Positions 1,013 through 15,434 of a stretch of DNA of 16,021 nt are shown here, one piece after another. The position numbers were made by a program, and so were the translations under genes. This DNA comes from a virus (Duplodnaviria; Heunggongvirae; Uroviricota; Caudoviricetes). Each line of letters starts with the position of its first letter. The first letter of the stretch is position 1. The stretch is taken from IMG/VR virus record IMGVR_UViG_2713896902_000004. One strand, given 5' to 3'. Under the pieces are notes generated by a model that had not been told where the DNA came from, did no database searches, and worked only from the letters and a program-made list of their open reading frames with translations.

Positions 1013-1072
1013 ATAAATTATATTATGAAAATAACATGGTTATTATGAGTAATATGGTAGTTTCATATAACT

Positions 1073-1630
1073 TTAATAATTATGTGGCATTATTGGCCAA
1101 TTAACATCGGATTTGATATCGAAACTCGTACGATTTAATTGTACACGATATTTTTTTAATCTTGATAAATAAACGATTTCCTCTTCTGTAGCCATATCTA
1201 GATCTACAGCGTCTTGTAAAGGTAATATGATCTCACTTGCTACTTTGAGTAGATTTTCTTTTTCTTTGAGAAATATATTTTCTAGGTCACTAGAACTATA
1301 TTCCTTGGTGATTATTTGTTCGTTTATATATTGATATTTATCTCGAATCATTATATCTTCTGGTAATATATCCGTTTCAATAATATCAAATCCTGCAGGA
1401 TATAGTTTTGAAATGTCTGTAGCTACAGAGCATATAAACTTACTTTCAGGGTGAACACATAGTTTATATTTTTTAGTGAACATTGGGAATGACGTGTAAA
1501 AATCTAATCCATTTTCATCTATGAAGTATTGAACTTCATCTCCATAAGGTTTTTCTTCTGGATAATAGCGAGTTACTTTTGTTAATTTCATTTTGGTATT
1601 CTCATCCTGAAATGGTACGCCACGCACCAT
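1073..1630 (-). CDS. Tail fibre assembly protein (lambda Tfa / P2 gpG-like chaperone)
   Basis: C-terminal ...LLKVASEIILPLQDAVDLDMATEEEIVYLSRLKKYRVQLNRTSFDIKSDVNWPIMP matches the conserved Tfa C-terminal motif. Sits immediately 3' of the fibre gene. The start is ambiguous: the longest ORF starts at 1630 and overlaps the fibre end by 29 nt; the internal ATG at 1589-1591 (MKLTKV...) has an AGGA upstream. Strongly AT-rich. Confidence 0.85.
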   Translation of the reverse strand: MVRGVPFQDENTKMKLTKVTRYYPEEKPYGDEVQYFIDENGLDFYTSFPMFTKKYKLCVHPESKFICSVATDISKLYPAGFDIIETDILPEDIMIRDKYQYINEQIITKEYSSSDLENIFLKEKENLLKVASEIILPLQDAVDLDMATEEEIVYLSRLKKYRVQLNRTSFDIKSDVNWPIMPHNY

Positions 1631-3098
1631 TAATATTTATTTGGACTGGTTTATATCGTACGCATTCCATTTTATCACCGCCGTCAACAAATGTGATTAC
1701 GCATCCAGCGGGGGCTGAAGTAGATGACTGAACTTCTGCTCCTAATTGTATGTTTTGTATATATCGAGCGTCAGATTGAGCTTTGGTATAAATGTTCACA
1801 GTGGTTGCTTTGCTGTTAGCAAGATCAAAAGCTGCCTTCACCGCGCTTGGTGTTGCCGCTTCCGTCGTACTTGTGCTGTTCGTTGCACTATTAAGCTTCA
1901 CAACTCCTTTTTGCGTCAGTGTGGCGTCGGGGATACCAGTGATTTGTCCCCAGGCGTGGGTATGACTTGCTGGTGCAGCCGCAATAGCCTTATCCATTGC
2001 CGCCTTCACCGCGCTCGGTGTCGCAGCTTCCGTTGTGCTGGTGCTGTTTGTGGTACTGTTAAGTTTCACAACTCCTTTTTGCGTCAGCGTGGCGTCGGGG
2101 ATAGCAGTGATTTGTCCCCAGGCGTGGGTATGGCTTGCTGGTGCAGCCGCAATAGCCTTATCCATTGCCGCCTTCACCGCGCTCGGTGTTGCAGCTTCCG
2201 TCGTGCTGGTGCTGTTTGTGGTACTGTTAAGTTTCACAATTCCTTTTTGCGTCAGCGTGGCGTCGGGGATACCAGTGATTTGTCCCCAGGCGTGGGTATG
2301 GCTTGCTGGTGCAGCCGCAGTAGCCTTATCCATTGCTGCCTTCACCGCGCTCGGTGTTGCAGCTTCCGTTGTGCTGGTGCTGTTTGTGGTACTGTTAAGC
2401 TTCACAATCCCTTTCTGCGCCAGCGTACCGTCAGGGATACTGGTTATCTGATTCCAGCCATGAGTATGACTGGTGGCGGCTTTGCTATTTGCCAGGTCAT
2501 ATGCGGTTTTTACTGCTTTTGGTGTGGCCGCTTTGGTTTCATCATCGCTATTAGTTGCATTACTCAGTTGCGTGAAACCTTTCTGCGTCAGTGTTGCATC
2601 AGGATGATTTCGTGATTGCTGATGTGCTTTCAGCGTGTCATCGACATATTCCCTGGTTGCCATAACAACTGAAGGATCTATCAACAGCGTCACCACATCC
2701 GCATTTGTCACTTCCATCACTGCGCGTATAACAATTTGCTTACTGGCACCTGCAGGTAATTGTGGTTTATAGGTTTCAGGGAATTTACCAATAGCGACCA
2801 GCGTGCCGTCGGTATCCAGCAACCCAACTTCGCGAACATACCAGCCTCCAACCTCTTCGGGAATAATCGCTTCTGCGATAACCCAGGCCGGATTATCTGG
2901 CGCAATTTTTAATGTATTGAGCTGACCACGCCAGACCTCATGGACTACTTTGGTCTGGATTTCTGTCGGTTCGATATATTTACCGTTGCCATCGCCAACT
3001 ACCATAGTTTGCAGACGGATCTGTTTTTGCTCCGCCAGTGCTGAGGCAATTTGGGTTTTGCCTGCAGCAGTTAATATTGTAAAAAATTCACTTGCCAT
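1602..3098 (-). CDS. Tail fibre protein (P2 gpH / Mu S-like N-terminus, repeat-containing shaft, divergent C-terminal tip)
   Basis: N-terminus MASEFFTILTAAGKTQIASALAEQKQIRLQTMVVGDGNG...NPAWVIAEAIIPEEVGGWYVREVGLLDTDGTLVAIGKFPETYKP matches the conserved gpH-type baseplate-attachment domain. Shaft has about 4 tandem ~56-aa repeats (SHTHAWGQITGIPDATLTQKGVVKLNSTTNSTSTTEAATPSAVKAAMDKA), the motif typical of side tail fibres. Confidence 0.9.
   Translation of the reverse strand: MASEFFTILTAAGKTQIASALAEQKQIRLQTMVVGDGNGKYIEPTEIQTKVVHEVWRGQLNTLKIAPDNPAWVIAEAIIPEEVGGWYVREVGLLDTDGTLVAIGKFPETYKPQLPAGASKQIVIRAVMEVTNADVVTLLIDPSVVMATREYVDDTLKAHQQSRNHPDATLTQKGFTQLSNATNSDDETKAATPKAVKTAYDLANSKAATSHTHGWNQITSIPDGTLAQKGIVKLNSTTNSTSTTEAATPSAVKAAMDKATAAAPASHTHAWGQITGIPDATLTQKGIVKLNSTTNSTSTTEAATPSAVKAAMDKAIAAAPASHTHAWGQITAIPDATLTQKGVVKLNSTTNSTSTTEAATPSAVKAAMDKAIAAAPASHTHAWGQITGIPDATLTQKGVVKLNSATNSTSTTEAATPSAVKAAFDLANSKATTVNIYTKAQSDARYIQNIQLGAEVQSSTSAPAGCVITFVDGGDKMECVRYKPVQININGAWRTISG
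1840..2530. repeat. Tandem direct repeats, about 168-bp unit, roughly 4 near-identical copies inside the fibre gene
   Basis: Near-identical 168-bp units begin at about 1861, 2029, 2197 and 2365, with more diverged copies on either side. In frame with the fibre ORF; they also create the spurious plus-strand shadow ORFs 1746..2615 and 2035..2451. Confidence 0.85.
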
Positions 3099-3100
3099 TA

Positions 3101-3832
3101 TTACTCCGGGTATACAGACATTATTTCGGTGCTCCAGTATCCTGTACCGATTTTCATCAGTTGGGATTGTGTAAGGCGATCAGGTCGATAAGGTAGTAGT
3201 TGGATATATTCCTCTACACAATAACCTGTCGCTAAAAATATTCTTGATGATTGGCTGATACTTTCTGCAACAGGAGGCAATACTGTAATGATTTCCCCTC
3301 CTTGCATGGCACTGCCAATAACTGGTATTGAGCTTTGATTAATAAGCCAAATAACAATACTTTCCAGTTTTGAACGAACATTTTTATATTCATGAATTAA
3401 TGTGATAAGTGCATTAAATTCATCTTCATTTAACCCTTTTTCCTCTAGTGTAATATCAACCTTAAAAAAATAAGCTTTCCCGCCATATTCAAACCATTCG
3501 GTAATAGTTCCAGGCAATGAGAGTATTTCCAGTACTCGCCGTACCGCCCAAACTGTTCCTTTATATTTATGTAACTCAATGGCTTGCTTAATTAACTCAC
3601 GCTTCTCTTGTTCATCAGTAGTAAATAACCAACCTTCCAGCCCCTGAACGTGGAATTGTTCTGCAAGGGCAGGTAATGCCGAAGCATCAACCAGGTCGAC
3701 CAGGTATATCATTAATGCCGTCAGATCGAGTTGCGCAAAACGTTCGGCGGCGATATTTGCCAGAGTTGAAAAACGCTCATCGCTGGCAAGCGGCGGCGGT
3801 GGCAGCAATTTATCCATCGCTGACTCCGGCAA
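3101..3832 (-). CDS. Baseplate protein gpI-like (P2 gpI / Mu gp48 family)
   Basis: Position between the gpJ-like gene and the fibre gene, size, and overlap with the gpJ gene (23 nt). Family assigned mainly by synteny and general resemblance. Confidence 0.7.
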   Translation of the reverse strand: MPESAMDKLLPPPPLASDERFSTLANIAAERFAQLDLTALMIYLVDLVDASALPALAEQFHVQGLEGWLFTTDEQEKRELIKQAIELHKYKGTVWAVRRVLEILSLPGTITEWFEYGGKAYFFKVDITLEEKGLNEDEFNALITLIHEYKNVRSKLESIVIWLINQSSIPVIGSAMQGGEIITVLPPVAESISQSSRIFLATGYCVEEYIQLLPYRPDRLTQSQLMKIGTGYWSTEIMSVYPE

Positions 3833-4925
3833 TCGTGACGTCTATTACAGTGCATTCCGCCCATTCATGCGCCTGCAAAATACGTTTTGTAGGCATGTTC
3901 AGCACAACGTCATAGACGCCATCGACTTGTAACACTTTGATTATCTGGTTTGGCACAATGTCCTGCCCCAGATGTTTCTGCCGCTGTTGCGTCCAGAGGC
4001 TAATCGCTTTACGCGCCGCAGCCAGTGTTGTCTCCTGATCGGCGGTGGTAAACAGCGTTAGCTGCGCACGAATTTCATACGGCACCCTAAGAGCACATTT
4101 CGCACTTACTTTGTCAGTCAGCGGACGTTTTTTCTCTTTACTCACTTCTTGTTCAATTTGCGCGAGTAGCTCGGTTCCCGGCAGACCATTCAGGGTTAGC
4201 GGGTAGAGCTCGACGCAGCCTTCTGGCAACCCTTCATCTGGCCCCAGTACTGCAACGTCAATAATTGACTGGCTAACCGAAAGTGTATGAAAGCGATATG
4301 CGCCATAGCTGCCGGCATTACTGAAGCTTTCTGGCGCCAGTTGTATACGCTGGCGTAGTGCATCATCGTTCTCTTCACCGCAACCGCCGGTTGTGGGAGT
4401 CAGATTAGTCACGTTGATATCGTAATAACCGATCCTGTCAACAAGGGCGCTAATCTGTGCAGGCTGCCAGCCATTGCCCTGTTCACCTGCTGCGAGGCTG
4501 GTGGCCGGAACGGCGATATGCAAACTCCTGGCCGGAAGCAGAACATCTTCATCGGTGGCGAACATCACGCTGTCAGAGGCACTGGCCCGCGTCCCCTGGG
4601 GAATCAGGATATTGCTGGTATACGCACTGACGACCGAAAACTGCAACGTCGTTTTTGCCGATTGTGCAGGTAAACGGTGAACACCCACCAGCTCCCCTAA
4701 ATAATCCAACATTGGTGCGCGGGAATACGTGACCAGGTTTTGTTTCGCCGCTTCCTGAATGGCGATGCGCACAAGGTTTTCACGATAGGCAAACAGGTCG
4801 ATGAGTAACCGTTCGGCCTGTGCCGGATAGAGTTTTTTACCGCTGGCATCTTCGTATTGCGCAATCATCTCGCTGGTAATTTGCGCAGGATCGCGGTCAA
4901 TAAAATCGGGTTCGGCTATCGCCAT
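3810..4925 (-). CDS. Baseplate wedge protein gpJ-like (Baseplate_J / T4 gp6-like)
   Basis: 371-aa ORF directly after the gpW-like gene with overlapping junction; sequence character typical of Baseplate_J proteins; conserved V-W-J-I-H-G order. Confidence 0.8.
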   Translation of the reverse strand: MAIAEPDFIDRDPAQITSEMIAQYEDASGKKLYPAQAERLLIDLFAYRENLVRIAIQEAAKQNLVTYSRAPMLDYLGELVGVHRLPAQSAKTTLQFSVVSAYTSNILIPQGTRASASDSVMFATDEDVLLPARSLHIAVPATSLAAGEQGNGWQPAQISALVDRIGYYDINVTNLTPTTGGCGEENDDALRQRIQLAPESFSNAGSYGAYRFHTLSVSQSIIDVAVLGPDEGLPEGCVELYPLTLNGLPGTELLAQIEQEVSKEKKRPLTDKVSAKCALRVPYEIRAQLTLFTTADQETTLAAARKAISLWTQQRQKHLGQDIVPNQIIKVLQVDGVYDVVLNMPTKRILQAHEWAECTVIDVTIAGVSDG

Positions 4926-5275
4926 AACACCTCCGTTGAGTTGATTACGCCGTCAGCGGCGCGCCATTGCACACGTAACGTCAGATGTTCACCGTCGATT
5001 ATCGGTGCTACCTTCAGCAACCGACATCGCGGTTCCCACTGGCGGATGGCTTCCACCGACTCCCGTACCACATGCGGGATTGCCCGCTCGATGGGGTAAT
5101 CGATGTAGTGCCACAAGTTGCTGCCAAACAGCGGTCTGTGGGGATCACTGCCGCGCGGCGTGCGCAGAATGATGTGTATTGCCTGGTGAATATCATCCAG
5201 TCCGCAGACGTATTCTTCAGGCCGCTGCAAGGCGGGTTGCCAGTGCAGCGTTGAGGGGCGTGTTTTTGTGTTCAT
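4916..5275 (-). CDS. Baseplate wedge protein gpW-like (GPW/gp25 family)
   Basis: 119 aa; ...DDIHQAIHIILRTPRGSDPHRPLFGSNLWHYIDYPIERAIPHVVRESVEAIRQWEPRCRLLKV... resembles the gp25/GPW family; sits between the V-like and J-like genes. Confidence 0.8.
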   Translation of the reverse strand: MNTKTRPSTLHWQPALQRPEEYVCGLDDIHQAIHIILRTPRGSDPHRPLFGSNLWHYIDYPIERAIPHVVRESVEAIRQWEPRCRLLKVAPIIDGEHLTLRVQWRAADGVINSTEVLWR

Positions 5276-5336
5276 GTGCTTATTTTCGCCCTGAACGGAC
5301 AGTGGGGATATTAAAGCGATTTAGAAAACTGATTGA

Positions 5337-5368
5337 TTAAAAAGAGAAAACCCGCCATCAGGCGGGTT
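5337..5368 (-). terminator. Intrinsic-terminator-like hairpin between the gpV-like and gpW-like genes
   Basis: On the minus strand, 4 nt after the gpV stop: AACCCGCC-TGAT-GGCGGGTT (8-bp GC-rich stem, 4-nt loop) followed by TTTTCTCTTTTT. Confidence 0.5.
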
Positions 5369-5373
5369 AAAAG

Positions 5374-6033
5374 CTAGTGTGAATGGTGATTTGAGTTACC
5401 ACCGCTATCCTGCAATGTGCCGCTGGCCTGAACGTTACCAATCACATTGACATTGCCAGTTATCGTGGCGGCGTTACCGATGCCTCCACTTCCTGCCATG
5501 CCACCCAGCCAGGTGAGTTTTTTCATTACTGTGACGTTACCAGTAAAGGTGCTCATGGGCGCATCTACCGTCACTGTCGCCGCTTTAATATCGACGGTAT
5601 CGGAAGTCACGGTGACCTGTTGGGCTTTAACCTCAACGTTGGGTGATGTCAGGTTAGTATGGTCAATAACCTCAATCACGATTTTCTCAATACCGCCGTT
5701 AATCGTAAGCTGGTGTGTGCTGCGGTCATATTCAAACGCTGCGCCATCAGAAAACTGGACGTAACGTTTATCTCGCGAGGCCACAGGCGCGGTGTCAACC
5801 GTAGAATAAACGGCCCCAAGTACCACGCCATCTTCGCCGTTGTCGTCCAGCAGAACTTCCACCTGCTCACCCATATCCGGTAGCCAGTAGTCTTTATTGT
5901 CCTGGGAATTACGTTGAAGTACCGCAAGCCAGTTACTCTTCAGATTGTCGCACTCTGGCAGTGTGACTCGCACCCGAACGCTGGTTTCGTCAATATCGCT
6001 GATAATCCCCGTTTGCCGGGTTACTCCCTTCAT
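5374..6033 (-). CDS. Baseplate central spike protein gpV-like (P2 gpV / Mu gp45 family)
   Basis: 219 aa; N-terminal OB-fold-like region (…NGEDGVVLGAVYS…) and a C-terminal Gly/Val/Asn-rich beta-helix-like region (GNVTVMKK…GNVNVIGNVQASGTL) typical of spike proteins; follows the gpD-like hub gene. Confidence 0.8.
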   Translation of the reverse strand: MKGVTRQTGIISDIDETSVRVRVTLPECDNLKSNWLAVLQRNSQDNKDYWLPDMGEQVEVLLDDNGEDGVVLGAVYSTVDTAPVASRDKRYVQFSDGAAFEYDRSTHQLTINGGIEKIVIEVIDHTNLTSPNVEVKAQQVTVTSDTVDIKAATVTVDAPMSTFTGNVTVMKKLTWLGGMAGSGGIGNAATITGNVNVIGNVQASGTLQDSGGNSNHHSH

Positions 6034-6042
6034 AGTGCCTCC

Positions 6043-7083
6043 TTACTGGCTGGTTGCTGGCCCGCGCGAAACGTCGATTTCAGTGGTATAGCCGCTGCGC
6101 ACAAAACTGTGAGTAGATTTATCAATCAGCCATTGTCCAGAAAGAATACCAAAATCAATGAGTTCGATTTTATTGCCTGCTGTCAGTTCCGGGCAGCCCA
6201 TCATCCTGAGTGTTCCGGTTTGCTGATATTCGTTGTGGCTGTCGAGTGCAGCGTTGGCCTTTGCCTGTGCCGCGCCAACATCCGTCGCCCGGCTGTTGAG
6301 TTTCAACGTGTCGGCACTGGTGCCGACTCCACGGGCTGACGGTTTTTGCTGGCTGTCGTGAGTGTAGATAACCAGTTCTTTTTTCTTACTATTTTGATGC
6401 TGTACGGTGGCGTTCTTGTAGATGCGATTAATGGTGTCTTTGAAGGTAAAGTGCGAAACCTCTTTACGGTCGATGGTTTTCACTGGCGCCAGGCAGCGTA
6501 GTGTCGGCAGATGTGAAAAAATCAGCTCTTTTGTCGTCACTTTCACGGCATAGCCATATTCGCTGGCCAGACGCTTGAGAAATCCAACATCGGTTTCGCC
6601 GTACTGTGTCACCCGGTCAATCGCCAGTGGCTCGATTTTGCCCACCAGCTTCAGACCGTGAGTTTGCGCGATACGACTGGCGATGGCCGAAAGCGTCGTT
6701 TCTTCAAAGCCCTGACTGTTACGGGTACGCAGCGCCTGATTGACGGAAGTGGCAATGCCATCAATATTTACCGTGGAAGGTGGTGCTGAAATATCAATTT
6801 TATCAATAACATACTGACCGCAATCGAGGAGCGTCTCCCCCTGATAACCCATATGTAGCGCCAGCGTATCGCCTTTGCCGGGATACCACTCTTTTATCCA
6901 ACGTCCATCGGTGTCATCCAGTGTAATGGCGATGGTATCTGACTCGTTTTTGATGCTGTCGTGGTAACTGATGCTGGTGACATAGGGCGTGATGTCATAA
7001 GTGATATCTTTATGCCCATACCAAAGGGTAAAAATGGGCGCGAGTGTGGCAAAGACGCCACCAGATACGCTTATCTCAGCCAT
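6043..7083 (-). CDS. Baseplate hub protein gpD-like (P2 late control gene D / Mu gp44 / VgrG-N family)
   Basis: 346 aa with the family character (…SDTIAITLDDTDGRW…PGKGDTLALHMGYQGETLLDCGQYVIDKIDISAPP…); conserved position after the gpX-like gene. Confidence 0.8.
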   Translation of the reverse strand: MAEISVSGGVFATLAPIFTLWYGHKDITYDITPYVTSISYHDSIKNESDTIAITLDDTDGRWIKEWYPGKGDTLALHMGYQGETLLDCGQYVIDKIDISAPPSTVNIDGIATSVNQALRTRNSQGFEETTLSAIASRIAQTHGLKLVGKIEPLAIDRVTQYGETDVGFLKRLASEYGYAVKVTTKELIFSHLPTLRCLAPVKTIDRKEVSHFTFKDTINRIYKNATVQHQNSKKKELVIYTHDSQQKPSARGVGTSADTLKLNSRATDVGAAQAKANAALDSHNEYQQTGTLRMMGCPELTAGNKIELIDFGILSGQWLIDKSTHSFVRSGYTTEIDVSRGPATSQ

Positions 7084-7283
7084 GGTGGTATCTCCGATAA
7101 GGTTTTGTTGACGGAAATGACCGGAATAATGAGTTGAATACCGGAAGGCAGTACCGGGTAAATGGCGACATGTGGATTGGCGGCGATGATGCGTTCATAA
7201 GCCAGCGCATCGCCGTAGTAATACCATGCCAGATTATCCCAGCGTTCGCCGTCGGTGGTGATATGTTCAAGGTATCGCATCAC
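7071..7283 (-). CDS. Tail protein X-like (P2 gpX, LysM-like baseplate protein)
   Basis: 70 aa; TTDGERWDNLAWYYYGDALAYERIIAANPHVAIYPVLPSGIQLIIP parallels the gpX pattern (T..GDTLD.I..RYYG…VL.ANP…LP.G..V.LP). ATGA overlap with the upstream gene. Confidence 0.7.
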   Translation of the reverse strand: MMRYLEHITTDGERWDNLAWYYYGDALAYERIIAANPHVAIYPVLPSGIQLIIPVISVNKTLSEIPPWLR

Positions 7284-8233
7284 CAGCTCCTCGTAATGGT
7301 CGCGGCAGCAAGCTGGCTCACTGCGGGAGTGGTTTGTTGTACCGTTGTTCGTGCCTGCTCAACCAACGTTGCGGCTTTATCGAACGTCGCTTCGGCGATG
7401 TCGTTGGTAATGTCGTCGAAAAGCGCCTGAGCATGGTCAACCAGCGTGCTGGCGTCTTTGGCGCAGTCCCGGATACCTGGCATGTTACCCAGTAAAGCGT
7501 TAATCTGCGCCGATAACGCTTTTGGGAGTCCTGCCAGCGTTTGCAGATCCATGGGCTGTTTAAACAGGGTTTCGATGGCGTCGATAGTCTTTTTCAACGA
7601 CGTAATTATCTTTTCACACTTTTCTTTTAACGCTTTGGCCTCTTTAACCAGTGCTTTCACTTTTGCCACCGTTTTTTTAATATCTTCAATGGCTTGAGTC
7701 AGCTCATCGAGCATCTCTTTGGCCTTACGCATACCTTCTTCAATGGCGTTCAATATCTGATCAAACCAGGACTCCACCATGTCTGGAAAATCGCTCGCCT
7801 TTTCGTCAATATTCGGGTCTTGGGTAGTAATTGCCGGGGGCAAGAGTGGATTTTTAGGATCACCGGTGTACTCCTGGAGCGACATTGTTCCGCTTTGAGC
7901 AATCACATTGCCCCAGGGATCGGTGTGCTGGTGGGTGGCGGTTAGCTCCGTAATCACAAACCAGCCGCGATAATCGCCATTGCCAAACACCAGAGCCATC
8001 GCTTTGTGGGCAAGCATGCCTTCACGCAGTCGATTCAGCTCTGTTGTGGGTTGGCAAAACTGGCTGTGCAAGGAAAATTCCAGTGCCAGCATATCCAGCT
8101 TATCGCCAATAAACTGCACGCCGGGTTTGCCTTCTATACGGGCATGTGTGGCGTAGTCCACGCCCATTGTGCTTTTAAAGCCGTCCCAGAATGTGACAAC
8201 CTTAAATTCAATCTCTCCTAAAACGGCATACAT
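7280..8233 (-). CDS. gpU-like tail/baseplate protein with a long alpha-helical, coiled-coil-like C-terminal extension
   Basis: The first ~120 aa loosely resemble P2 gpU-type tail proteins, and the gene sits in the gpU position (TMP-U-X-D). The C-terminal ~180 aa are rich in A/K/E/L heptad-like sequence. Start overlaps the TMP stop by 1 nt. Confidence 0.5.
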   Translation of the reverse strand: MYAVLGEIEFKVVTFWDGFKSTMGVDYATHARIEGKPGVQFIGDKLDMLALEFSLHSQFCQPTTELNRLREGMLAHKAMALVFGNGDYRGWFVITELTATHQHTDPWGNVIAQSGTMSLQEYTGDPKNPLLPPAITTQDPNIDEKASDFPDMVESWFDQILNAIEEGMRKAKEMLDELTQAIEDIKKTVAKVKALVKEAKALKEKCEKIITSLKKTIDAIETLFKQPMDLQTLAGLPKALSAQINALLGNMPGIRDCAKDASTLVDHAQALFDDITNDIAEATFDKAATLVEQARTTVQQTTPAVSQLAAATITRSW

Positions 8234-10608
8234 CAGGCATACCCCCGGCGCTGTTGTTGCGCCATTACGTCGTTAATCATTCTTTCCAGTTCGCGTTTAC
8301 TTATCGTCAACACGTTCTGAATGTCTTTAGTGGTGTTTTGTCCGTTACTCTGCACGGTAATTTGTGGCGAAAAATTCACCTGAACTTTTCCAGAGGAACG
8401 GGAGGGTAGCGTCGCCGGTTTGGTTACAGATTTACCAGGTAAAGAGGCCGATGCGGGTTTGGCTGCTGTATTTTTTGCCGCTGGTGTCGATGGCGACGTT
8501 GTCGTTTTACTGGATGGCGCGAGTTGTTTGCCCACAGGAGGCGTTAAAATCGCTCCGGCAACGCCTGGAACAACGGTCGTGGGGGAGATTGATGCGGTAT
8601 TCGTCGTGCTTGTAACAGCCGTAGCCGATCCTTCTGTGCTAATACCCATCGTGGTTTTTAGCCAGTCCGGTAAGGCGTTTTTGACCTGATCAATAATGCC
8701 TTTCAGAGCGGGGAAAGCATTCATTATGCCGTCAACCAGACTGCCCAGAAGATTGCTGCCGAACTCGCTAAAACTTGCAGGCATCTCGATACCAAACCAA
8801 TTCATCACACTGGAAAAGGCGCTGTAGAACAACTCCAGCGGCGACCAGTCGAGAATTAACCGGCAAATCCCTGCAATGCCGCCGTCAAAGGCCGTGGTGA
8901 TACGTTGCCAGATGGCGGAAAAGAATCTGGAGATAGGTTCCCAGTGGCGATAGATCAGATAAGCAGCGCCCGCAATCGCGGTGATGACCAGACCAATGGG
9001 ATTCATCAATAAAACTCTACCCAACCAGAAGACGGTCTGACCTGCCAGTTTCAATGCGCCAATCAGGCCACGGCCAAGCAGTTGCGTTAGCCATTTTGCG
9101 CCGTTATATAATGACTTAACCGCTGATAGCATCTTACTTGCCGCGCCTGTGAGCGTCAGACTTGCCCTGACTTTCAGGAAGATATCGACCAGACGAATAA
9201 ACGGCGAGGCGATGACGTTCGCGCCCAGCTTTAAAACATTCAGTGCGCCGTTAAACAGCCAAATCGCTCCGACGATTTTCGCAATGTTTTGCACCAGCGC
9301 CGGGTGTTCACGTAGCCAGGCGCTGAACTGGCGAATCACCGGAGTAAGGCTTTGCGCCAACTCGCCAATCAGCGGCATTAATTGCAAGCCAATGCTGAGC
9401 CATAAATCATTTAACGCCAGTTGTAACGTTTTAGTTTGTTCAATGGGCGAGGCCATCTGCACAGAAAAATCGTTGTCAATCATATTCTTACCGCTGTCTT
9501 GCATGGCGGAGGCTTTTAACTGGCGATACTCTTCCATATTCGCCAGCACAGGTGCCAGGAATTCCACTGTTTGCGCATCGCCGAACATTTCGCCCAGATT
9601 AAATTGCGTCACCATCGATTGCAGTGCGTTGCTGCGAGCAGATAAATCTTCAATTTGCATGGTGCGTTTGAAGGTGTCGAGGATCGCCGGATTCATCTTC
9701 TCAAGTTGCGTTTGCACGATATGAATCATGGCTTCGCTAACACCCATGCCGTTTTGCTGATGTTCAAGCAGAGAGCCTTGCAGATCGACGCCCTGGCTGA
9801 CGAACCAGTTATCGGTTTTTTTCGAAAAGATGGTTTGCAGAAAGTGGTCGAAATTCTCCGCCGCCACACTGGCGCTGGCACCATTTTTCATTGCGATCTG
9901 CATTGTGGCGGTCAGTTCAGCCATACCTTCTAAACCCTGTGCGCCAGTTTTAACTGCAAATTTGTCTATCCACTGCGCTTGCCCGGCAACGGTAGGCCCA
10001 CCGTTTTTGCTAATGCCGTACATCATGTTTTGCGCGGCGTGGAAATTTTCTGGCGCAATATTCAGTCGATCATGAGTCGCGAGCGCGGCATTCGCCCATG
10101 TTTCAGCACTTTCGCGCGTGGTGGTGGCTGCTTTGGCGATCTCCGGCATATAACGGTTGAGATCCTGCATCGACGACAAATTACCTTCGATTAGCACCTG
10201 GGCTGCGTTCTGTAAGGTGGTCTGCTGCTGGTTAAAATCCATACTCCAGTCGCGCAGATTAAGGCTGAGTGTCTCGCGGGTTGTATCATTCATCCCACCT
10301 TTGGTCGCCAAATTGACCATGTTGTCCTGAAACTCATACGGCAACTTCCAGTCAGGGACTTCAACATTGAATACTTTGCTAAATTGCCCGGCAAATGTTT
10401 GGGTTTTCTCCATCAGATCAGCGCGGTTTCGGCTATTTTCCTCCAGGCGGAGAGCGGAATCGGCAAGTTGCTGCGTTAGTTTGATTACTGCCGCTTGCTG
10501 AGAAGAGAGTGCTAACAATGTTCTGGCGTTGAGTGAGCCGTAACGGGCTATTGCCTGCGTCAACGTCTCATTACGCGTCTGAAGCTGGGTAATAATATCG
10601 TTGGCCAA
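8233..10608 (-). CDS. Tail tape measure protein
   Basis: 791 aa, largest gene of the module, directly after the chaperone gene; alpha-helical N-terminal half, several hydrophobic segments in the middle, Ser/Thr/Pro-rich low-complexity C-terminal region. Annotated start is TTG with AAGAGA upstream. Confidence 0.8.
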   Translation of the reverse strand: MANDIITQLQTRNETLTQAIARYGSLNARTLLALSSQQAAVIKLTQQLADSALRLEENSRNRADLMEKTQTFAGQFSKVFNVEVPDWKLPYEFQDNMVNLATKGGMNDTTRETLSLNLRDWSMDFNQQQTTLQNAAQVLIEGNLSSMQDLNRYMPEIAKAATTTRESAETWANAALATHDRLNIAPENFHAAQNMMYGISKNGGPTVAGQAQWIDKFAVKTGAQGLEGMAELTATMQIAMKNGASASVAAENFDHFLQTIFSKKTDNWFVSQGVDLQGSLLEHQQNGMGVSEAMIHIVQTQLEKMNPAILDTFKRTMQIEDLSARSNALQSMVTQFNLGEMFGDAQTVEFLAPVLANMEEYRQLKASAMQDSGKNMIDNDFSVQMASPIEQTKTLQLALNDLWLSIGLQLMPLIGELAQSLTPVIRQFSAWLREHPALVQNIAKIVGAIWLFNGALNVLKLGANVIASPFIRLVDIFLKVRASLTLTGAASKMLSAVKSLYNGAKWLTQLLGRGLIGALKLAGQTVFWLGRVLLMNPIGLVITAIAGAAYLIYRHWEPISRFFSAIWQRITTAFDGGIAGICRLILDWSPLELFYSAFSSVMNWFGIEMPASFSEFGSNLLGSLVDGIMNAFPALKGIIDQVKNALPDWLKTTMGISTEGSATAVTSTTNTASISPTTVVPGVAGAILTPPVGKQLAPSSKTTTSPSTPAAKNTAAKPASASLPGKSVTKPATLPSRSSGKVQVNFSPQITVQSNGQNTTKDIQNVLTISKRELERMINDVMAQQQRRGYA

Positions 10609-10708
10609 AATTGTTTCTCTTATAGATTGGTGATGGCCCGCTGGTTAGTTTTCTGAAAAATGGGCTGGGAAGAAATAAACCTGGCGAGCTTTGAAGAACT
10701 CGCAGACA

Positions 10709-10930
10709 TCAGGTCTGCGAGTCATATTCGATTTTTATTTGAGCGCTGGCTTCATCCAGCCAGTGACTAAAGTCATCTATCGTGAGCGAGTCAATCTCAC
10801 TGGGTGGAAAGCGAAACCATCTCGCCAGTAGCGCCATTGCCTGCCATAGCAAGGGGGGATTCTGTAGCCACGGTAAGCATGGATTGAAATCGTTTCTGCA
10901 ACGCCTGGTAATCCAGCAAATCCATTTCAG
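10709..10930 (-). other. Open +1-frame window overlapping the 3' end of the chaperone gene; candidate programmed-frameshift extension (gpE'-like)
   Basis: Relative to the chaperone frame, the +1 frame is open from 10930 to a TGA at 10709-10711, running about 29 codons past the chaperone stop (…FPPSEIDSLTIDDFSHWLDEASAQIKIEYDSQT). A C6 run (10853-10858; TCC CCC CTT in frame 0, CCC CCC TTG in +1) is a possible slip site. The -1 frame closes 8 codons after the chaperone stop. Confidence 0.35.
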
Positions 10931-11114
10931 CTAAATCTTCTGGTACCAGCCCGGTCATCGCTGCCATTAGCGGTTCATCCCATTCTTCCGGCTTTTCGCT
11001 GACCCGGCGTGCATTACGCATATCTTTGACTTTCAGGCGACGTAATTGTAGCGTGTCGATATTATTTCCTGCTGCCGACGTAAAGGGAAACTGTAAGATA
11101 TAATGCTCTTTCAT
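10797..11114 (-). CDS. Tail assembly chaperone (P2 gpE-like)
   Basis: 105 aa between the tube and tape-measure genes; …LQLRRLKVKDMRNARRV…LMAAMTGLVPEDLAEMDLLDYQALQKRF… resembles the gpE family; AAGGA Shine-Dalgarno upstream. Confidence 0.7.
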   Translation of the reverse strand: MKEHYILQFPFTSAAGNNIDTLQLRRLKVKDMRNARRVSEKPEEWDEPLMAAMTGLVPEDLAEMDLLDYQALQKRFQSMLTVATESPLAMAGNGATGEMVSLSTQ

Positions 11115-11140
11115 TTTGTATCCTTATTTATTTTTCGGAG

Positions 11141-11160
11141 TTCGGGGCCGTAGCCCCGAA
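11141..11160 (-). other. GC-rich intercistronic stem-loop between the tube and chaperone genes
   Basis: TTCGGGGC-CGTA-GCCCCGAA, perfect 8-bp stem with 4-nt loop, starting 4 nt after the tube stop; no U-tract follows on the minus strand. Confidence 0.4.
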
Positions 11161-11164
11161 TAAC

Positions 11165-11689
11165 TTAGCCACCGATGTTATTGCGATAGGTACTTAATTG
11201 ATCCACGCCGTTAACGCGGAAAATATTCGCCATATAATCCAGTTCAAGCAGCGTTTCACCATCGACTACTTGTTTAATATAAGTGCAGCCAAAGGCGCTG
11301 CTGAATTCCGGGTTTTCATTCTGTTTAAATGTGCCCAGTGGATTTTTTTTAAACATCACGGTTAAATGTGTGACTAACGCTAATTGATTCGCTTTCCCCT
11401 GAGAGTTATAACAATCGATACTGGAGCGACACTGTAATGCTACAGCCTGCCACGGGTTTGCCGTTTTACGCATTACGTCCTGGTAAAAGGAGTTCCATTT
11501 AATTTCCCCCTCCAGTTTATCGAAACCAGCCGGGAGTTCTATTTTACCCACCATGCCCAGTGCTTTATGTTCCTGCATAATTAAACTGACATCTGGCAAT
11601 TTAATTTCTGTTGCACGGCCTAAAAGATTATTACCATCGAGATAAATATTGGCGTTGGTAATACGGTTAATTTGAATTTTTCCAGCCAT
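11165..11689 (-). CDS. Tail tube protein (P2 FII-like)
   Basis: 174 aa immediately after the sheath gene with a 1-nt overlap; size and sequence character of contractile-tail tube proteins. Confidence 0.8.
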   Translation of the reverse strand: MAGKIQINRITNANIYLDGNNLLGRATEIKLPDVSLIMQEHKALGMVGKIELPAGFDKLEGEIKWNSFYQDVMRKTANPWQAVALQCRSSIDCYNSQGKANQLALVTHLTVMFKKNPLGTFKQNENPEFSSAFGCTYIKQVVDGETLLELDYMANIFRVNGVDQLSTYRNNIGG

Positions 11690-13116
11690 TAGCGATTGCT
11701 CTCCAGAGAGACTAAATATTCAGAGGTAATTTCAGTTTCAAACGTCAGACGTTCCAGCGGCGGCGGTGGGGTAAATTTATAGCTGAGCAATAAATGCCCG
11801 GCACTGAGTTCAGCCGGTGAATTTCGCGCCGGATCGTACCAGCACTCAAAGCCAAGCAGTGCGCCGTCGGCAATCAGTTTTCGGCCCCAGGTATTTACCG
11901 ATTCGGTCAGCGCGTCAATCAGTGCCTGATTGATCGGCATATCAATATACTGTTGACTGAAATAACGGATTGACTCATTAATTACATCGCCTGTCCGGCG
12001 AACGTTTTCAAAGTTACGCATATGAGTCACGGTTGGCCATGCCGCTGTGCGGTTGCCCCACAGGCGCAGACCAGAACCATAACTATTGAAAATAGTGGTA
12101 ATACCGTTTTCGTTGAGCTGATTCACTTCGCTTTGTGGATCATCAATCATTGCGGAAAGCGAACGTTCGATACCGGTAATACCCTGAATTTCCTGGTTTG
12201 AGTTGCTCCACCAGAAACCTTTTTCGAGGTCTACTTTGGCACGTAGCCCGGCAGCGCGCGAAGAGAGAGGTTCAAGAATTTCCTGGTTAGTGATGCCATC
12301 GTAAACTTTGACGTGTGGGTAGCATAAACGTGCACGATCAGAGCTGGTATTGAAGTTGATTGCGCCTTGCGAACCGCGTCCAGCCAATACCTGCTGGAAT
12401 GTAGTCCCAATTGGGGCATCAATGTAGGTAATCGCACCGAGTTTTTCCGCTTGTGCAATCAGCTCGGTAGTCACTGATTTTTGCGTACAAAAAACGGGTG
12501 CCAGCAGAATTTTGGCGTAGAAACCATACAAGTTATAAGTGTCCTGAAGGAGCCTCATCCCCGTGCGATCGCCTGCGGTATTAACGGCCCCGATAATATC
12601 GGCTGCGGTGACCTTTGTAGGGTCAACATAGGTATAAGTCGCGTAAACCTTTGCTCCTGCCGCAATTTCAGTTCCTGTACGGGTAATAACGCCGTCAGCG
12701 GCATTAACGCTGTATGATGTATTTTTGTATGTAGTGGAACTGATACTTGCTCTTAGCGTTACCGAACTTACCCCCGGATGAGTTAATTTAGCTTTATCGT
12801 CACTATTGAACGTAATGGTTTCATTGGTAATGTGTAGTCCATGTTTTACTGGATCCAGCACATTAATTACCACCACTGTACCGGCACCGTGATCATAAAT
12901 CGCCTTCAGCGCCTGCGGGATCGTAAAGTTAGCCTGAGTCGATCCAAACTGTGCCGCGTCACTTTCAGAAAGGCACAGCGTCGGTTGGTTTACCGGGCCA
13001 CAGGGAGCGGTACCGATTAAAGCGATTACAGCAGATTTTACTGCTTTTACCGGACGCGGGCCGGTTTCAATTTCAATGGTTTCTACACCGTGCAGATAAT
13101 TAGCTGCCATGTACAA
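11689..13116 (-). CDS. Tail sheath protein
   Basis: 475 aa; C-terminal conserved sheath motif (…GSGLRLWGNRTAAWP…); followed by tube gene with overlapping stop/start. Confidence 0.9.
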   Translation of the reverse strand: MYMAANYLHGVETIEIETGPRPVKAVKSAVIALIGTAPCGPVNQPTLCLSESDAAQFGSTQANFTIPQALKAIYDHGAGTVVVINVLDPVKHGLHITNETITFNSDDKAKLTHPGVSSVTLRASISSTTYKNTSYSVNAADGVITRTGTEIAAGAKVYATYTYVDPTKVTAADIIGAVNTAGDRTGMRLLQDTYNLYGFYAKILLAPVFCTQKSVTTELIAQAEKLGAITYIDAPIGTTFQQVLAGRGSQGAINFNTSSDRARLCYPHVKVYDGITNQEILEPLSSRAAGLRAKVDLEKGFWWSNSNQEIQGITGIERSLSAMIDDPQSEVNQLNENGITTIFNSYGSGLRLWGNRTAAWPTVTHMRNFENVRRTGDVINESIRYFSQQYIDMPINQALIDALTESVNTWGRKLIADGALLGFECWYDPARNSPAELSAGHLLLSYKFTPPPPLERLTFETEITSEYLVSLESNR

Positions 13117-13297
13117 TTTCCTCTACGTTATTTTGTTCTTCCTGGGGAATGATGAGAATCAAGTGATTTCGGGCAATCATGGTCATAACCCACTCATTGT
13201 CTTCTGGCAGATCAATTTCACTGTTCGGCCATAATAAGATTTCTTGACCGTCGGCAAGGGTGACGCCGCTTGCCGGACCGTTGTAGATATATTTCAT
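13100..13297 (-). CDS. Small conserved phage protein preceding the sheath gene (Mu gp38/DUF2635-like by position)
   Basis: 65 aa; ATGA overlap with the upstream gene and 17-nt overlap with the sheath start; assignment by position and size only. Confidence 0.35.
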   Translation of the reverse strand: MKYIYNGPASGVTLADGQEILLWPNSEIDLPEDNEWVMTMIARNHLILIIPQEEQNNVEEIVHGS

Positions 13298-13749
13298 TCA
13301 GTTTCCTCGTAATTAACTTCAGTAAGCAGGGGAAGATCCGTGCTGTCCTGTTCAGCGATAAACAGCGAGCTGGTCGCCATTTCCAGGATGTAGCGGCAGA
13401 AACCGTCGCTCTCACCCGTATTAATTTCTTTTTCAAGCCAAATAAGATGATCGCAATCAGGAGGCTGAAGGCCTCCCAATGCGCTGCGTATGTGATCAAG
13501 TGCGTTTAACGCATCACAATTTTTGCCAACAATAACGGTGGCGGTTAAGCGGAGTATTTGCTGTTGTACAATGGCATCACTACTTTCGGGCGTGGTGAAG
13601 ACAGAACCGCTATAATTAATAATCACCGTAATCTGTTGTGTCTGTGGAATATATTTTTGGGCATCCGTAGATGAAATGAATATGTCCATTTCAGGATGCC
13701 GATCACGTAATCTGACCACGACATAATTCATTACAGATAAAATTTTCAT
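13294..13749 (-). CDS. Putative tail completion/terminator protein (Mu gp37-like by position)
   Basis: 151 aa, first gene of the tail block after the terminator at 13855-13891; coupled to the next gene by an ATGA overlap; assignment by synteny. Confidence 0.4.
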   Translation of the reverse strand: MKILSVMNYVVVRLRDRHPEMDIFISSTDAQKYIPQTQQITVIINYSGSVFTTPESSDAIVQQQILRLTATVIVGKNCDALNALDHIRSALGGLQPPDCDHLIWLEKEINTGESDGFCRYILEMATSSLFIAEQDSTDLPLLTEVNYEETE

Positions 13750-13854
13750 ATGAGGTGTACCTTAATTACCGCTCACTTCGTTATCGTTGAAATGTATTCT
13801 GAAGCAGTGAGAGTGAAGAATCTTTTAATGTGATTTAGAGAAAAAATTGAATGG

Positions 13855-13891
13855 TTATAAAAAATCCCCACACTTACGTAAAGGTGGGGAT
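13855..13891 (-). terminator. Intrinsic terminator after the lysis cassette
   Basis: On the minus strand, 4 nt after the stop of the 104-aa gene: ATCCCCAC…GTGGGGAT (8-bp stem with a partly self-pairing 12-nt loop) followed by TTTTTTATAA. Confidence 0.55.
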
Positions 13892-13895
13892 GTAT

Positions 13896-14210
13896 TTAAT
13901 AACTGCCACGTTGTAATAACTCTATTTTGCTATATAAGGCATCCAGCTTTGCTTCTAATACTGCTTGTCCACGAAGATAATCCTCTCTGCGGACATAATA
14001 CAGTGGAAGTTCGGCACGAAATTCGAGAAATTCTCTTTCCAGTTTCGACCAGCTTGTTTCTGATTCCCTGCGGGCATTTTCCAGGGACTCAAAACGCTCA
14101 TTAAGTCTTTTTTCAATTTGCGCTAACAGCAATTTTCCGGCAGCAAACATTAATCCAACGAATGAAAGCATAAAGGAGATCACTTCCCAAAAATCGATAC
14201 TGAGTTTCAT
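13896..14210 (-). CDS. Membrane-anchored coiled-coil protein, possible i-spanin (Rz-like) or lysis accessory protein
   Basis: 104 aa; N-terminal hydrophobic helix (ISFMLSFVGLMFAAGKLLLAQI) followed by a charged helical region; immediately after the transglycosylase gene. Confidence 0.4.
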   Translation of the reverse strand: MKLSIDFWEVISFMLSFVGLMFAAGKLLLAQIEKRLNERFESLENARRESETSWSKLEREFLEFRAELPLYYVRREDYLRGQAVLEAKLDALYSKIELLQRGSY

Positions 14211-14222
14211 CGGCCCCTCTGA

Positions 14223-14828
14223 TTAGTGAAGACAGCTTGCCTGTCCCCAGAGTAAGTAGCGGGCGGCGTGTTGATAGAGAATCATCTTCGGATAGTGACG
14301 ATTTTCTCGCCAGTTTGCGGCGCTGCGCCCGGCGTTGACTTGCTCAACATGACCAAACCAGATGGCGGCATTTAACCCTTTTGTTGTCGCCAGTTTTTTA
14401 TCCCGGTTAATCCAACCCTGACCACCGTTATAGGCGCTTAGAGTAAACGCCATACGTTGACAATCATTTTTTGCAGAGATGTTGTTCCATAAATGCTGGT
14501 CGTACTGTACCAACGCCCGGATTGCCCAGGTTGGGTTATACGGTTTGTTTTCATGTAGCTGTGGATACAGTTGGCTTATCCATGTCGCTGTGGCAGGCAT
14601 AAATTGCGCCATACCTTGTGCGCCAACGGGGGAACGTACCATTGGCTGCCAGGCGGACTCCTGGTGTAATTGCCCGGCAAAGTCAGCCACAGGAGCGTTC
14701 AGTCCCCAGACTTCTCGGGCGGTACGAATCAATTCATTTCTCCATGCCAGAGAGGCTTGTGGTGGTTCAGACGCATTAAGCGGGAAAAGAACGAAAATAA
14801 TCATAGGCGCGATATATTTTAGCCACAT
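14223..14828 (-). CDS. Lytic transglycosylase (SLT-domain endolysin candidate) with N-terminal signal peptide
   Basis: SLT catalytic motifs: …QLHQESAWQ… (catalytic Glu-Ser), …GAQGMAQFMPATA…, …AYNGGQGW…. The longest ORF runs to 14927 but the likely start is the ATG at 14826-14828 (MWLKYIAPMIIFVLFPLNA, Sec-type signal peptide), 2 nt after the upstream stop. Confidence 0.85.
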   Translation of the reverse strand: MWLKYIAPMIIFVLFPLNASEPPQASLAWRNELIRTAREVWGLNAPVADFAGQLHQESAWQPMVRSPVGAQGMAQFMPATATWISQLYPQLHENKPYNPTWAIRALVQYDQHLWNNISAKNDCQRMAFTLSAYNGGQGWINRDKKLATTKGLNAAIWFGHVEQVNAGRSAANWRENRHYPKMILYQHAARYLLWGQASCLH

Positions 14829-14830
14829 CA

Positions 14831-15118
14831 CTATAGCCCTAACGCGACGGAAAGGCAGACTGCAGCCACGATGATGGCGCGACGAATCATTGCCGCTGCG
14901 TAGCAACGCGGTTCCTTCCTGGGGCAAAAAAAGTCAGGCCGTGCCCAGGGGAACAAACTACGATCGAGCCAGTATCCCAGCACTGCGGAAAGTGAAACCA
15001 GGCTTAGTTTATAAATGACGACCGGAATTTGTGCTGAAGATGTCCAGCCGATCAATGCAATCAGAGCAATGGCTGCAGCCAGCCAACCGGAAAGACGGGG
15101 AAAAGTGATTTTTTTCAT
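14831..15118 (-). CDS. Holin-like small membrane protein
   Basis: 95 aa with 2-3 predicted transmembrane helices; strong AGGAG 8 nt upstream of the ATG; first gene of the lysis cassette, tightly coupled to the transglycosylase gene. Function by position only. Confidence 0.4.
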   Translation of the reverse strand: MKKITFPRLSGWLAAAIALIALIGWTSSAQIPVVIYKLSLVSLSAVLGYWLDRSLFPWARPDFFCPRKEPRCYAAAMIRRAIIVAAVCLSVALGL

Positions 15119-15434
15119 ACGATATCTCCTGATAAGTGAGATACCAGTGTCTGCTTATCTCTTTGCTGAAGAATGAAAAAAGCTTTAATAAATAACTTTA
15201 AAAAATGTGTTCTCTTCGAATTAACATGTTCGCCAATTAATCTCCCAACTCAAAATAGAGAACTAAGGATAAAATGGCTGCCAGTTAGATAAATCCTGCG
15301 TTATGTGTAATGAAGGGGATGACATATTGCAATCATGGTCGTTACTTATTTGATTTTTAAAGTTTGTTTAAAAAAATCCTCGACTGTGAGGGAAACGAGC
15401 TTTTTGAAAAGTAGGCGATAAAAATGATAAATAG

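Follow-up and report, generated by a model that had tools for sequence, protein, structure and literature searches.

The R2 pyocin of Pseudomonas aeruginosa is a headless contractile tail that carries its own lysis genes and is induced through an activator linked to the SOS response. R-pyocins have a P2-like gene order, in which the baseplate and fiber genes come before the sheath and tube genes; they lie at the trpE-trpG site and are controlled by the regulators PrtR and PrtN. Carotovoricin, an experimentally characterized phage-tail-like bacteriocin (tailocin) of the plant pathogen Pectobacterium, has been termed a "Mu-type tailocin" that is regulated by SOS/LexA and has no dedicated repressor (bioRxiv 10.64898/2025.12.09.693261). 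A conserved core with recombining tail fiber loci has been reported for it (PMC13195805), and the same article gives it four transcription units, citing Yamada 2006. Here, we describe a locus on a 16,021-nucleotide stretch of viral DNA (Caudoviricetes; IMG/VR record IMGVR_UViG_2713896902_000004), called the window below, in which a headless cluster of lysis and contractile-tail genes is accompanied by a divergent activator gene, mor. The locus resembles the R2 pyocin in its gene content, and its Mor and LexA-box control is unrelated to PrtR/PrtN. We consider it probable (about 0.65) that this locus is a domesticated, LexA/Mor-controlled R-type tailocin of the carotovoricin type, intact in the Escherichia albertii strain to which the window belongs.

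The carotovoricin cluster of Pectobacterium brasiliense, in the part that was retrieved, served as the reference. Its genes run in the same order as those of the window (holin, SLT lytic transglycosylase, gp25-like protein, Gp37, a 65-amino-acid protein, sheath, tube, chaperone, tape measure, U, X, D, V, W, J, I, and fiber). Identity to the window proteins is 76% for the tube, 75% for the sheath, 67% for gpW, 65% for the gp25-like protein, 61% for gpX, 60% for SLT, 58% for gpD, 55% for gpJ, 53% for the holin, and 27% for the tape measure. The head genes are missing at the same place, a PI-type promoter motif lies upstream of Gp37 in both clusters, and both combine a conserved core with a hypervariable fiber locus. 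Neither cluster has a dedicated repressor gene; carotovoricin is under SOS control, and the window locus has a conserved LexA box.

The two clusters also differ. Carotovoricin occupies the tolC_2/ybiB site in Pectobacterium (the retrieved cluster follows a protease-secretion operon ending in an OEP [TolC-family] gene, matching the described tolC_2 boundary), whereas the window locus lies at yjbD/lysC. Carotovoricin retains Rz-like and gp26 genes, both of which are missing from the window locus, while its fetched part has neither the Mor gene nor the LexA box that the window locus has. The fiber invertase gene ein is present in about half of carotovoricin clusters, whereas no recombinase or fiber invertase open reading frame (ORF) was found in the window by ORF listing or Pfam, and the four transcription units of carotovoricin compare with three that we infer for the window locus. 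In a neighbor-joining tree without support values, the carotovoricin sheath falls in a different clade from the headless loci at lysC (the lysC-type loci), which suggests independent domestication of the two. With site, sheath clade, and deletion endpoints all different, common descent with Pectobacterium carotovoricin is not supported. The window locus appears to work like carotovoricin but to be a separate domestication of the same type of phage. The carotovoricin activator RdgB, encoded elsewhere, is reportedly Mor-like; a protein search with Mor aimed at Pectobacterium RdgB returned only near relatives.

Genes of the window were assigned from ORF calls and from Pfam and PHROGs profile searches of the window proteins. 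The first-pass annotation of this DNA had claimed that every minus-strand gene from 15118 to 1073 is a lysis or contractile-tail gene and had proposed profile searches of all ORFs; these placed all 18 consecutive minus-strand ORFs in one or the other category, at the coordinates it gave. All 18 genes are intact in the window copy:

14831-15118, minus strand: holin (PF13272, E = 7e-26; phrog_1528, "holin")
14223-14828, minus strand: endolysin, a lytic transglycosylase (SLT) with a hydrophobic N-terminal signal or anchor (PF01464; phrog_669, "endolysin")
13896-14210, minus strand: 104-amino-acid membrane protein with an N-terminal transmembrane segment and a coiled coil, homolog of BcepMu gp25 (46% identity; phrog_462; ratio of nonsynonymous to synonymous substitution [dN/dS], 0.03)
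13294-13749, minus strand: Gp37-family protein, the first tail gene, presumed tail terminator/completion protein (PF09646)
13100-13297, minus strand: 65-amino-acid protein, homolog of BcepMu gp38 (phrog_895; tblastn matches from the BcepMu and PhiKM gp38 ORFs)
11689-13110, minus strand: tail sheath (PF04984 and PF17482; best PDB match, R2-pyocin sheath PA0622, E = 3e-45)
11165-11689, minus strand: tail tube (PF04985, E = 4e-56; dN/dS, 0.008)
10797-11114, minus strand: gpE-like tail assembly chaperone (PF10109), with an overlapping E' extension ORF (whole feature, 10709-11114)
8233-10608, minus strand: tape measure protein, 791 amino acids (PF10145)
7280-8233, minus strand: gpU-like tail protein with a coiled-coil C-terminal extension (PF06995; phrog_788)
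7071-7280, minus strand: tail protein X, gpX (PF05489)
6043-7083, minus strand: gpD-like baseplate hub (PF05954; phrog_52)
5374-6033, minus strand: gpV-like baseplate spike (PF04717)
4916-5275, minus strand: baseplate wedge gpW/gp25 (PF04965)
3810-4925, minus strand: baseplate wedge gpJ (PF04865)
3101-3817, minus strand: baseplate/fiber-attachment protein gpI (PF09684)
1602-3098, minus strand: tail fiber, 498 amino acids, with a tail-collar N-domain, five Phage_fiber_2 repeats, and a low-GC C-terminal tip (PF12571 and PF03406)
1073-1630, minus strand: tail fiber assembly chaperone, Caudo_TAP (PF02413)

The contractile-tail set is therefore complete and intact (sheath, tube, E/E' chaperone, tape measure, U, X, D, V, W, J, I, fiber, fiber chaperone, Gp37, and the gp38-like protein), and the locus has its own lysis cassette of holin, SLT endolysin, and gp25-like protein. 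At 0.15 nm per residue, the tape measure would specify a tail of ∼119 nm. The E' extension ORF lies in the +1 (or −2) frame and is open over 10709-10930, whereas P2 E/E' uses the −1 frame; its peptide matches Phage_P2_GpE weakly (E = 9e-4), and the lysC-type loci all retain the +1-frame ORF, as do BcepMu, PhiKM, Brenneria, and a Pectobacterium phage. A run of six C residues (C6, ∼10848-10853) within the chaperone gene was considered as the programmed slip site and rejected because it is not conserved in E. coli or Salmonella. Homology of the 104-amino-acid membrane protein to Mu gp25 (releasin) was likewise rejected at the sequence level, with no BLASTP similarity and no DUF2730 match. The window contains no Pfam matches to markers of the Afp/PVC type (AAA+ ATPase, Afp16-type cap, and toxin cargo) and differs from those extracellular contractile injection systems in having a phage holin, an endolysin, and phage-type fibers. 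tRNA and Rfam scans of the window were both empty.

The nearest complete phages are the transposable myophages of Bcepmuvirus (BcepMu, phiE255, Escherichia phage PhiKM, and Klebsiella KP12), with sheaths 70 to 75% and tubes 69 to 74% identical to those of the window. BcepMu Mor (gp01) and SLT (gp22) are each 48% identical to their window counterparts, and the SLT enzyme of PhiKM is 64% identical to the window endolysin. The BcepMu map has Mor gp01 at its left end, followed by the early/transposition genes and the repressor, and then holin gp21, SLT gp22, Rz/Rz1 gp23/24, gp25, and gp26; it continues with TerS, TerL, portal, F, G, a gap, protease, capsid, gp35, adaptor gp36, gp37, gp38, and sheath gp39, through to fiber gp52. 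The window is colinear, one to one, with gp01, gp21-22, gp25, and gp37-gp52, and everything else is gone. The Bcepmuvirus phages share their late promoter motifs and the +1-frame E' ORF with the window and, unlike it, encode transposase, repressor, GemA, Rz/Rz1, terminase, portal, protease, capsid, and head-tail adaptor. Without transposase/MuB-like, repressor, terminase, portal, and capsid genes, the window does not qualify as a functional Bcepmuvirus prophage; the locus is a domesticated headless descendant of a BcepMu-like transposable myophage. The Mu-like order built from P2/Mu-family proteins, which the first-pass annotation had singled out, is present but is not unusual, because it is the normal gene order of Bcepmuvirus and also that of carotovoricin.

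Between the gp25-like gene and Gp37 the window has a gap of 146 bp, which is filled by a terminator and a promoter-like block and thus leaves no room for head genes; measurement of this gap upholds the earlier claim that none could fit between the lysis cassette and the first tail gene. A tblastn search of the window with every BcepMu and PhiKM ORF of at least 40 amino acids found no remnant of head, packaging, transposition, or early genes. The window comes from the yjbD-lysC region of the E. albertii chromosome: its fiber, holin, and gpW proteins have residue-for-residue matches in many E. albertii assemblies, and contig BBVM01000008 is 100% identical to window positions 1-13098. Flanks were therefore taken from E. 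albertii genomes with window-identical proteins, and from E. coli. In E. albertii, the right flank beyond mor consists of lysC, pgi, yjbT, psiE, and malGFE, and the left flank beyond the fiber chaperone consists of glycosyltransferase genes, yjbD, rluF, and a sorbose phosphotransferase system operon. E. coli copies are ∼91% identical and lie at the same site, with housekeeping genes out to 15 kb on both sides. No phage genes occur within 10 to 15 kb on either side in the E. albertii and E. coli genomes read; inspection of the flanks, which the first-pass annotation had proposed as a check, thus found conserved housekeeping genes and no capsid, portal, terminase, integrase, or transposase genes. 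The locus has no replication, transposition, integration, or lysogeny genes, and its site is fixed in several genera.

The headless locus was found at the same lysC/yjbD site in at least six genera (Escherichia, Salmonella, Citrobacter, Enterobacter, Superficieibacter, and Phytobacter). The layout of Mor facing holin-SLT-gp25-Gp37-sheath directly adjoins lysC in two Superficieibacter species, Phytobacter massiliensis, and Citrobacter freundii, and the Enterobacter cancerogenus copy lies in a lysC-yjbD neighborhood. In the sheath tree, the lysC-type loci form one clade and all head-bearing relatives fall outside it. All divergence within this clade therefore postdates the loss of the head. Between E. 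albertii and E. coli, pairwise dN/dS was 0.008 to 0.22 for every locus gene compared, with a synonymous divergence (dS) of 0.1 to 0.6 (0.3 to 0.9 for the flanking genes lysC, pgi, and rluF); between E. albertii and Salmonella, dN/dS was 0.04 to 0.28 for every locus gene compared, with a dS of 0.6 to 2.1 (0.8 to 1.4 for the same flanking genes). The dS of the locus is in the range of the flanking core genes. On this comparison of sequences, the headless state is old and selected, having been maintained in the host lineage after the head was lost.

The layout itself is not novel, and the locus has a described ortholog in Salmonella. STM4196-STM4219 of Salmonella Typhimurium has the same yjbD-lysC site, gene order, headless state, Mor, and LexA box, and its proteins are 57 to 96% identical to those of the window; it has been catalogued, though as a prophage remnant, Def4, that carries gtr genes (PMC5322425). 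Its Gp37 ortholog, STM4215, has a solved structure (PDB 2GJV). Two features set Def4 apart from the window: gtrABC (O-antigen glucosylation) is inserted between gpV and gpW, and a DUF4376-type fiber chaperone set replaces Caudo_TAP. In Salmonella Infantis, the gtrABC insert (fetched locus 14131-16966) occupies the gpV-gpW gap, where the window has its second terminator and late promoter motif, and the intergenic regions bordering the insert on either side hold near-identical repetitive extragenic palindrome (REP)-like sequences. A literature search found no description of the locus, or of its Salmonella and E. coli orthologs, as a tailocin.

The regulatory DNA of the locus comprises the following features:

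15674-16021, plus strand: mor, a late transcription activator of the Mor/C family (PF08765, E = 1e-37; PHROG, "late transcriptional activator")
15459-15464, plus strand: TAAAAT, candidate −10 of a mor promoter (flanking decamer GTGTAAAATG invariant in six species)
15437-15452, no strand: LexA (SOS) box CTGTATATGTATACAG, in the 555-bp mor-holin spacer (0.04 chance matches expected in the window)
15183-15208, minus strand: 26-nucleotide block ACATTTTTTAAAsTTATTTATTAAAG upstream of the holin gene, invariant in the six-species alignment
13859-13890, minus strand: Rho-independent terminator closing the lysis unit (−15.5 kcal/mol, z = −3.8)
13794-13839, minus strand: putative late promoter upstream of Gp37, with motif TCTAAATCACATTAAAAG at 13822-13839 and a −10-like GAATAC at 13794-13799, conserved in six species
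5311-5368, minus strand: terminator after gpV (5341-5368) and late promoter motif TTTCTAAATCGCTTTAA upstream of gpW (5311-5327), a PP analog

The mor gene is the only regulator retained from the ancestral phage. It is divergent from the tail and lysis genes, ends exactly at the window edge, and has a dN/dS of 0.07 versus E. coli. The LexA box, seen in context as cACTGTATATGTATACAGTA, matches the E. coli consensus TACTGTATATATATACAGTA at 18 of 20 positions and, together with its adjacent hexamer, is invariant in the six-species alignment. Among 98 fetched loci, the strict LexA pattern was found only in lysC-type headless loci, and it is absent from BcepMu and PhiKM; its confinement to this lineage suggests a regulatory change acquired with domestication. 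The SOS box and activator named in the first-pass annotation are thus both present and conserved. If TAAAAT is the −10 of mor, the LexA box would cover the −35 element and spacer. Read on the opposite strand, the same bases would give a possible holin-ward promoter, with TTTACA as its −35 and TACAGT, inside the LexA box, as its −10 (9 of 12 matches in a promoter scan). Control by LexA of a holin-ward transcript, with an attenuator in the spacer between mor and the holin gene, was dropped as the main model, the hairpin being weak (−5.4 kcal/mol, z = −0.5). A further conserved block in this spacer, at 15347-15405, consists of TTGATTTTTAAAGTTTGTTTAAAAAA followed by CGACTGTGAGGGAAACGAgCTTTTT; it is common to E. 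albertii, E. coli, Salmonella, and Phytobacter and is absent in Superficieibacter.

Three late transcription units are suggested by the remaining features. The 26-nucleotide block ahead of the holin gene, with a conserved −10-like GAyACT after it at 15146-15151, is presumed to be a Mor-dependent late promoter element, the analog of Plys; BcepMu, PhiKM, and carotovoricin have a related A/T-rich element, TAAA..TTAAA(A), upstream of their holin genes. The terminator hairpin after the gp25-like gene is preserved by compensatory changes across six species. The motif upstream of Gp37 also precedes the head protease gene in PhiKM (TCTAAAGCAGATTAAAA) and BcepMu (TAAAGCCGATTAAAAG), where it sits behind a hairpin in the G-protease gap, and carotovoricin has a matching motif, TCTAAAACAGATTAAAAG, upstream of Gp37. 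This match indicates that the terminator and PI analog survived while the genes on both sides of them were deleted. The terminator after gpV is of similar stability (−15.3 kcal/mol, z = −4.5), and the gpW-upstream motif is conserved in six species and also occurs in the gpV-gpW gap of BcepMu, PhiKM, and carotovoricin. A motif search with TTTCTAAATCNCNTTAA recovered only the two sites used to build it and is circular; independent support comes from the phage and carotovoricin loci. By homology with Mu-type late promoters, these three units would be transcribed from phage-type promoters that depend on Mor as their activator.

At the fiber end, the locus is variable. Comparison was limited to strains with identical gpW, among which fibers of 498, 520, 526, 552, 554, and 582 amino acids occur in three types of cassette:

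Type 1 (that of the window): fiber of 498, 520, or 554 amino acids, with the Caudo_TAP chaperone
Type 2: fiber of 526 or 582 amino acids with a Collar domain, with a DUF4376 chaperone and a 146- or 151-amino-acid protein
Type 3: Gly-rich fiber of 552 amino acids, with a shorter gpI and a DUF4376 chaperone

The Caudo_TAP chaperone of the window is replaced by the DUF4376 type in other strains, in E. coli, and in Salmonella. Within the fiber gene, a 168-nucleotide tandem repeat (3.6 copies at 1834-2440, 93% identity) encodes Phage_fiber_2 units of 56 amino acids; fibers of 498 and 554 amino acids differ by exactly one such unit, so repeat number and fiber length are polymorphic. The fiber tip and Caudo_TAP chaperone (1073-1700) are GC poor, at 30 to 36% versus ∼50% for the core. 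To judge from these sequences, the fiber/chaperone end looks like a set of cassettes swapped by recombination, and such swapping points to selection on target recognition.

These results suggest the following working model. Deletions in a BcepMu-like ancestor removed gp26-gp31, gp32-gp36, Rz/Rz1, and all early, transposition, and immunity genes while sparing the intergenic terminator and the PI analog, such that the old head promoter would now drive tail genes. LexA would bind the near-consensus box observed between mor and the holin gene and keep mor off. Upon DNA damage, RecA-stimulated self-cleavage of LexA would allow Mor to be made, and Mor would activate three phage-type late promoters with weak −35 elements, whose motifs and separating terminators are observed. 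The Plys unit would supply the holin, SLT endolysin, and gp25-like protein; the PI-derived unit would supply Gp37, the gp38-like protein, sheath, tube, chaperone E/E', tape measure, U, X, D, and V; and the PP-like unit would supply W, J, I, fiber, and chaperone. Headless tails of ∼120 nm would assemble and be released through lysis of the producer by holin and endolysin. If the analogy with R-pyocins and carotovoricin holds, the fiber would bind a surface receptor, probably lipopolysaccharide, on related strains, and contraction of the sheath would push the tube and spike through the envelope, killing without DNA transfer.

Several observations weigh against an R-type tailocin. A literature search found no report of tail particles or killing from the locus or from its Salmonella and E. 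coli orthologs. No Rz/Rz1 genes and no embedded lipoprotein ORF were found in the window, and with the ancestral spanins missing, lysis may be inefficient. The direction of the promoter at the LexA box and the Mor operator are putative, and exchange with related prophages by recombination could make purifying selection look stronger than it is. The locus is also damaged in a number of genomes. Of eight complete E. albertii genomes sampled, four are intact over the region covered and four have lesions: loss of one nucleotide from the C6 run of the chaperone gene (to C5), which fuses the E and E' frames, in one genome; a T7-to-T8 change in gpU in one; an IS1-mediated deletion in one of the eight; and, in CP157789.1, a triple lesion consisting of a LexA box change from ACAG to GCAG (fetched-locus coordinates 9667-9682), sheath W408* (sheath gene at 12009-13430), and a 2-nucleotide deletion in gpD (∼18110). 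This last, single case fits a derepressed locus that was toxic and then inactivated, and assembly errors may account for some of the single homopolymer indels. The fiber gene is a split pseudogene in each of the three E. coli genomes sampled (NCTC9699, ws5-3, and EC17GD31); all or nearly all other genes are intact in these copies, with gpI also frameshifted in NCTC9699, and the E. coli versions may be disarmed. Among 5,426 complete E. coli genomes, 244 have any match, 195 of them in the 90 to 95% identity band of the orthologous locus.

These losses, together with the missing spanins, the absence of the locus from most E. coli genomes, and the reading implicit in the label Def4, are what would be expected of an inert remnant, in which chance losses of head and early genes left a defective BcepMu-like prophage that now has no function and is in slow decay. 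We regard this as unlikely, since a neutral element that was headless before Escherichia, Salmonella, Citrobacter, and Enterobacter split should be full of stop codons, and instead all 18 window genes are open, every gene compared has a dN/dS of 0.01 to 0.28 at saturated dS, the noncoding signals (LexA box, promoter blocks, and terminator stem) are conserved or covary, and the fiber cassette is actively exchanged between strains. Selection could also act on a tail-only element that is not a bacteriocin, through SOS-triggered altruistic lysis that releases toxins, extracellular DNA, or vesicles, through phage decoy or defense, or through donation of tails to a satellite or phage that has only heads. 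Conservation of Mor and the lysis genes equals or exceeds that of the tail genes, and part of the selection could act on cargo, such as gtrABC in the Salmonella locus and the glycosyltransferase genes adjoining it in E. albertii. Selection acts on all of the structural genes of the tail, however, among them those for sheath, tube, tape measure, and baseplate, which neither lysis nor cargo alone would require; fiber swapping is more in keeping with recognition of a target, and deletion of the head-tail adaptor gp36 argues against the joining of these tails to heads; we consider such an element quite improbable. That the locus belongs to an ordinary complete prophage, with head and packaging genes just beyond the window, is hardly credible at all: the position of the head genes in BcepMu corresponds to the 146-bp gap, and housekeeping genes on the lysC and yjbD sides flank the locus in E. 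albertii, E. coli (to 15 kb), Salmonella, and Citrobacter, which excludes it. Gene content, flanks, selection, and conserved regulation support the headless R-type tailocin architecture proposed in the first-pass annotation, as far as sequence goes.

A wider form of the tailocin reading is held more tentatively and falls somewhat short of even odds. It would have a functional tailocin domesticated once, before the split of Escherichia, Salmonella, Citrobacter, and Enterobacter, and run by a direct cascade from LexA through Mor to the late promoters; Def4 and the E. albertii and E. coli orthologs would then be native R-type tailocins that, in the literature searched, have not been recognized, and their fiber cassettes would shape competition in the gut. 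If the locus is active, E. albertii, many Salmonella, Citrobacter, and Enterobacter strains, and some E. coli carry a built-in, SOS-triggered, strain-specific killing device so far filed as junk, which would matter for how strains compete in the gut and for the consequences of SOS-inducing antibiotics. Because its fiber cassettes are naturally exchangeable, an active locus would also be a starting frame for engineering tailocins that are native to enteric pathogens. The locus is valuable because it occurs in model enterics, is old, and displays the anatomy of its domestication clearly; it is a clean case of conversion from phage to host weapon in which head genes were deleted, an internal terminator and promoter were kept, and host LexA replaced the phage repressor.

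Genes that modify surface sugars recur at the locus. Immediately downstream of the tail cluster is a glycosyltransferase fragment of the GT4 family (86 amino acids; 572-832, minus strand); just past the window edge, an E. albertii genome has an intact GT4 gene encoding 380 amino acids (fetched locus 12267-14414). Salmonella has gtrABC and an acetyltransferase, and BcepMu has an acyltransferase. These genes may serve in receptor modification or self-protection.

Other tailocins and related elements were also compared. Syringacin Rp4 (SfV-like) and enterocoliticin (Mu-like), compared by description only, are likewise Mu-type myophage tails independently co-opted into SOS-inducible killing particles, with other phage lineages and regulators than those of the window locus. 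Two candidates were rejected: the E. coli ST131 "tailocin" (PMC9205054) is a P2-like complete prophage and not this locus, and BceTMilo, considered as a BcepMu-like relative, is P2/KL3-like. BcepMu-like elements in Brenneria (two loci), Lonsdalea (three loci), and a Paraburkholderia metagenome-assembled genome (one locus) keep lysis genes with Rz, and most have transposase or Mor/early genes; no terminase, portal, or capsid gene was found between gp25 and gp37 or elsewhere in the 21-kb loci fetched. These elements may represent intermediate steps or additional headless derivatives of independent origin. A third headless layout, in many Chromobacterium species and Rivihabitans, has Mor directly upstream of Gp37-sheath with no lysis genes between, and these loci form a sheath clade of their own. 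Taken together, the sequences suggest that BcepMu-like tails were co-opted several times independently.

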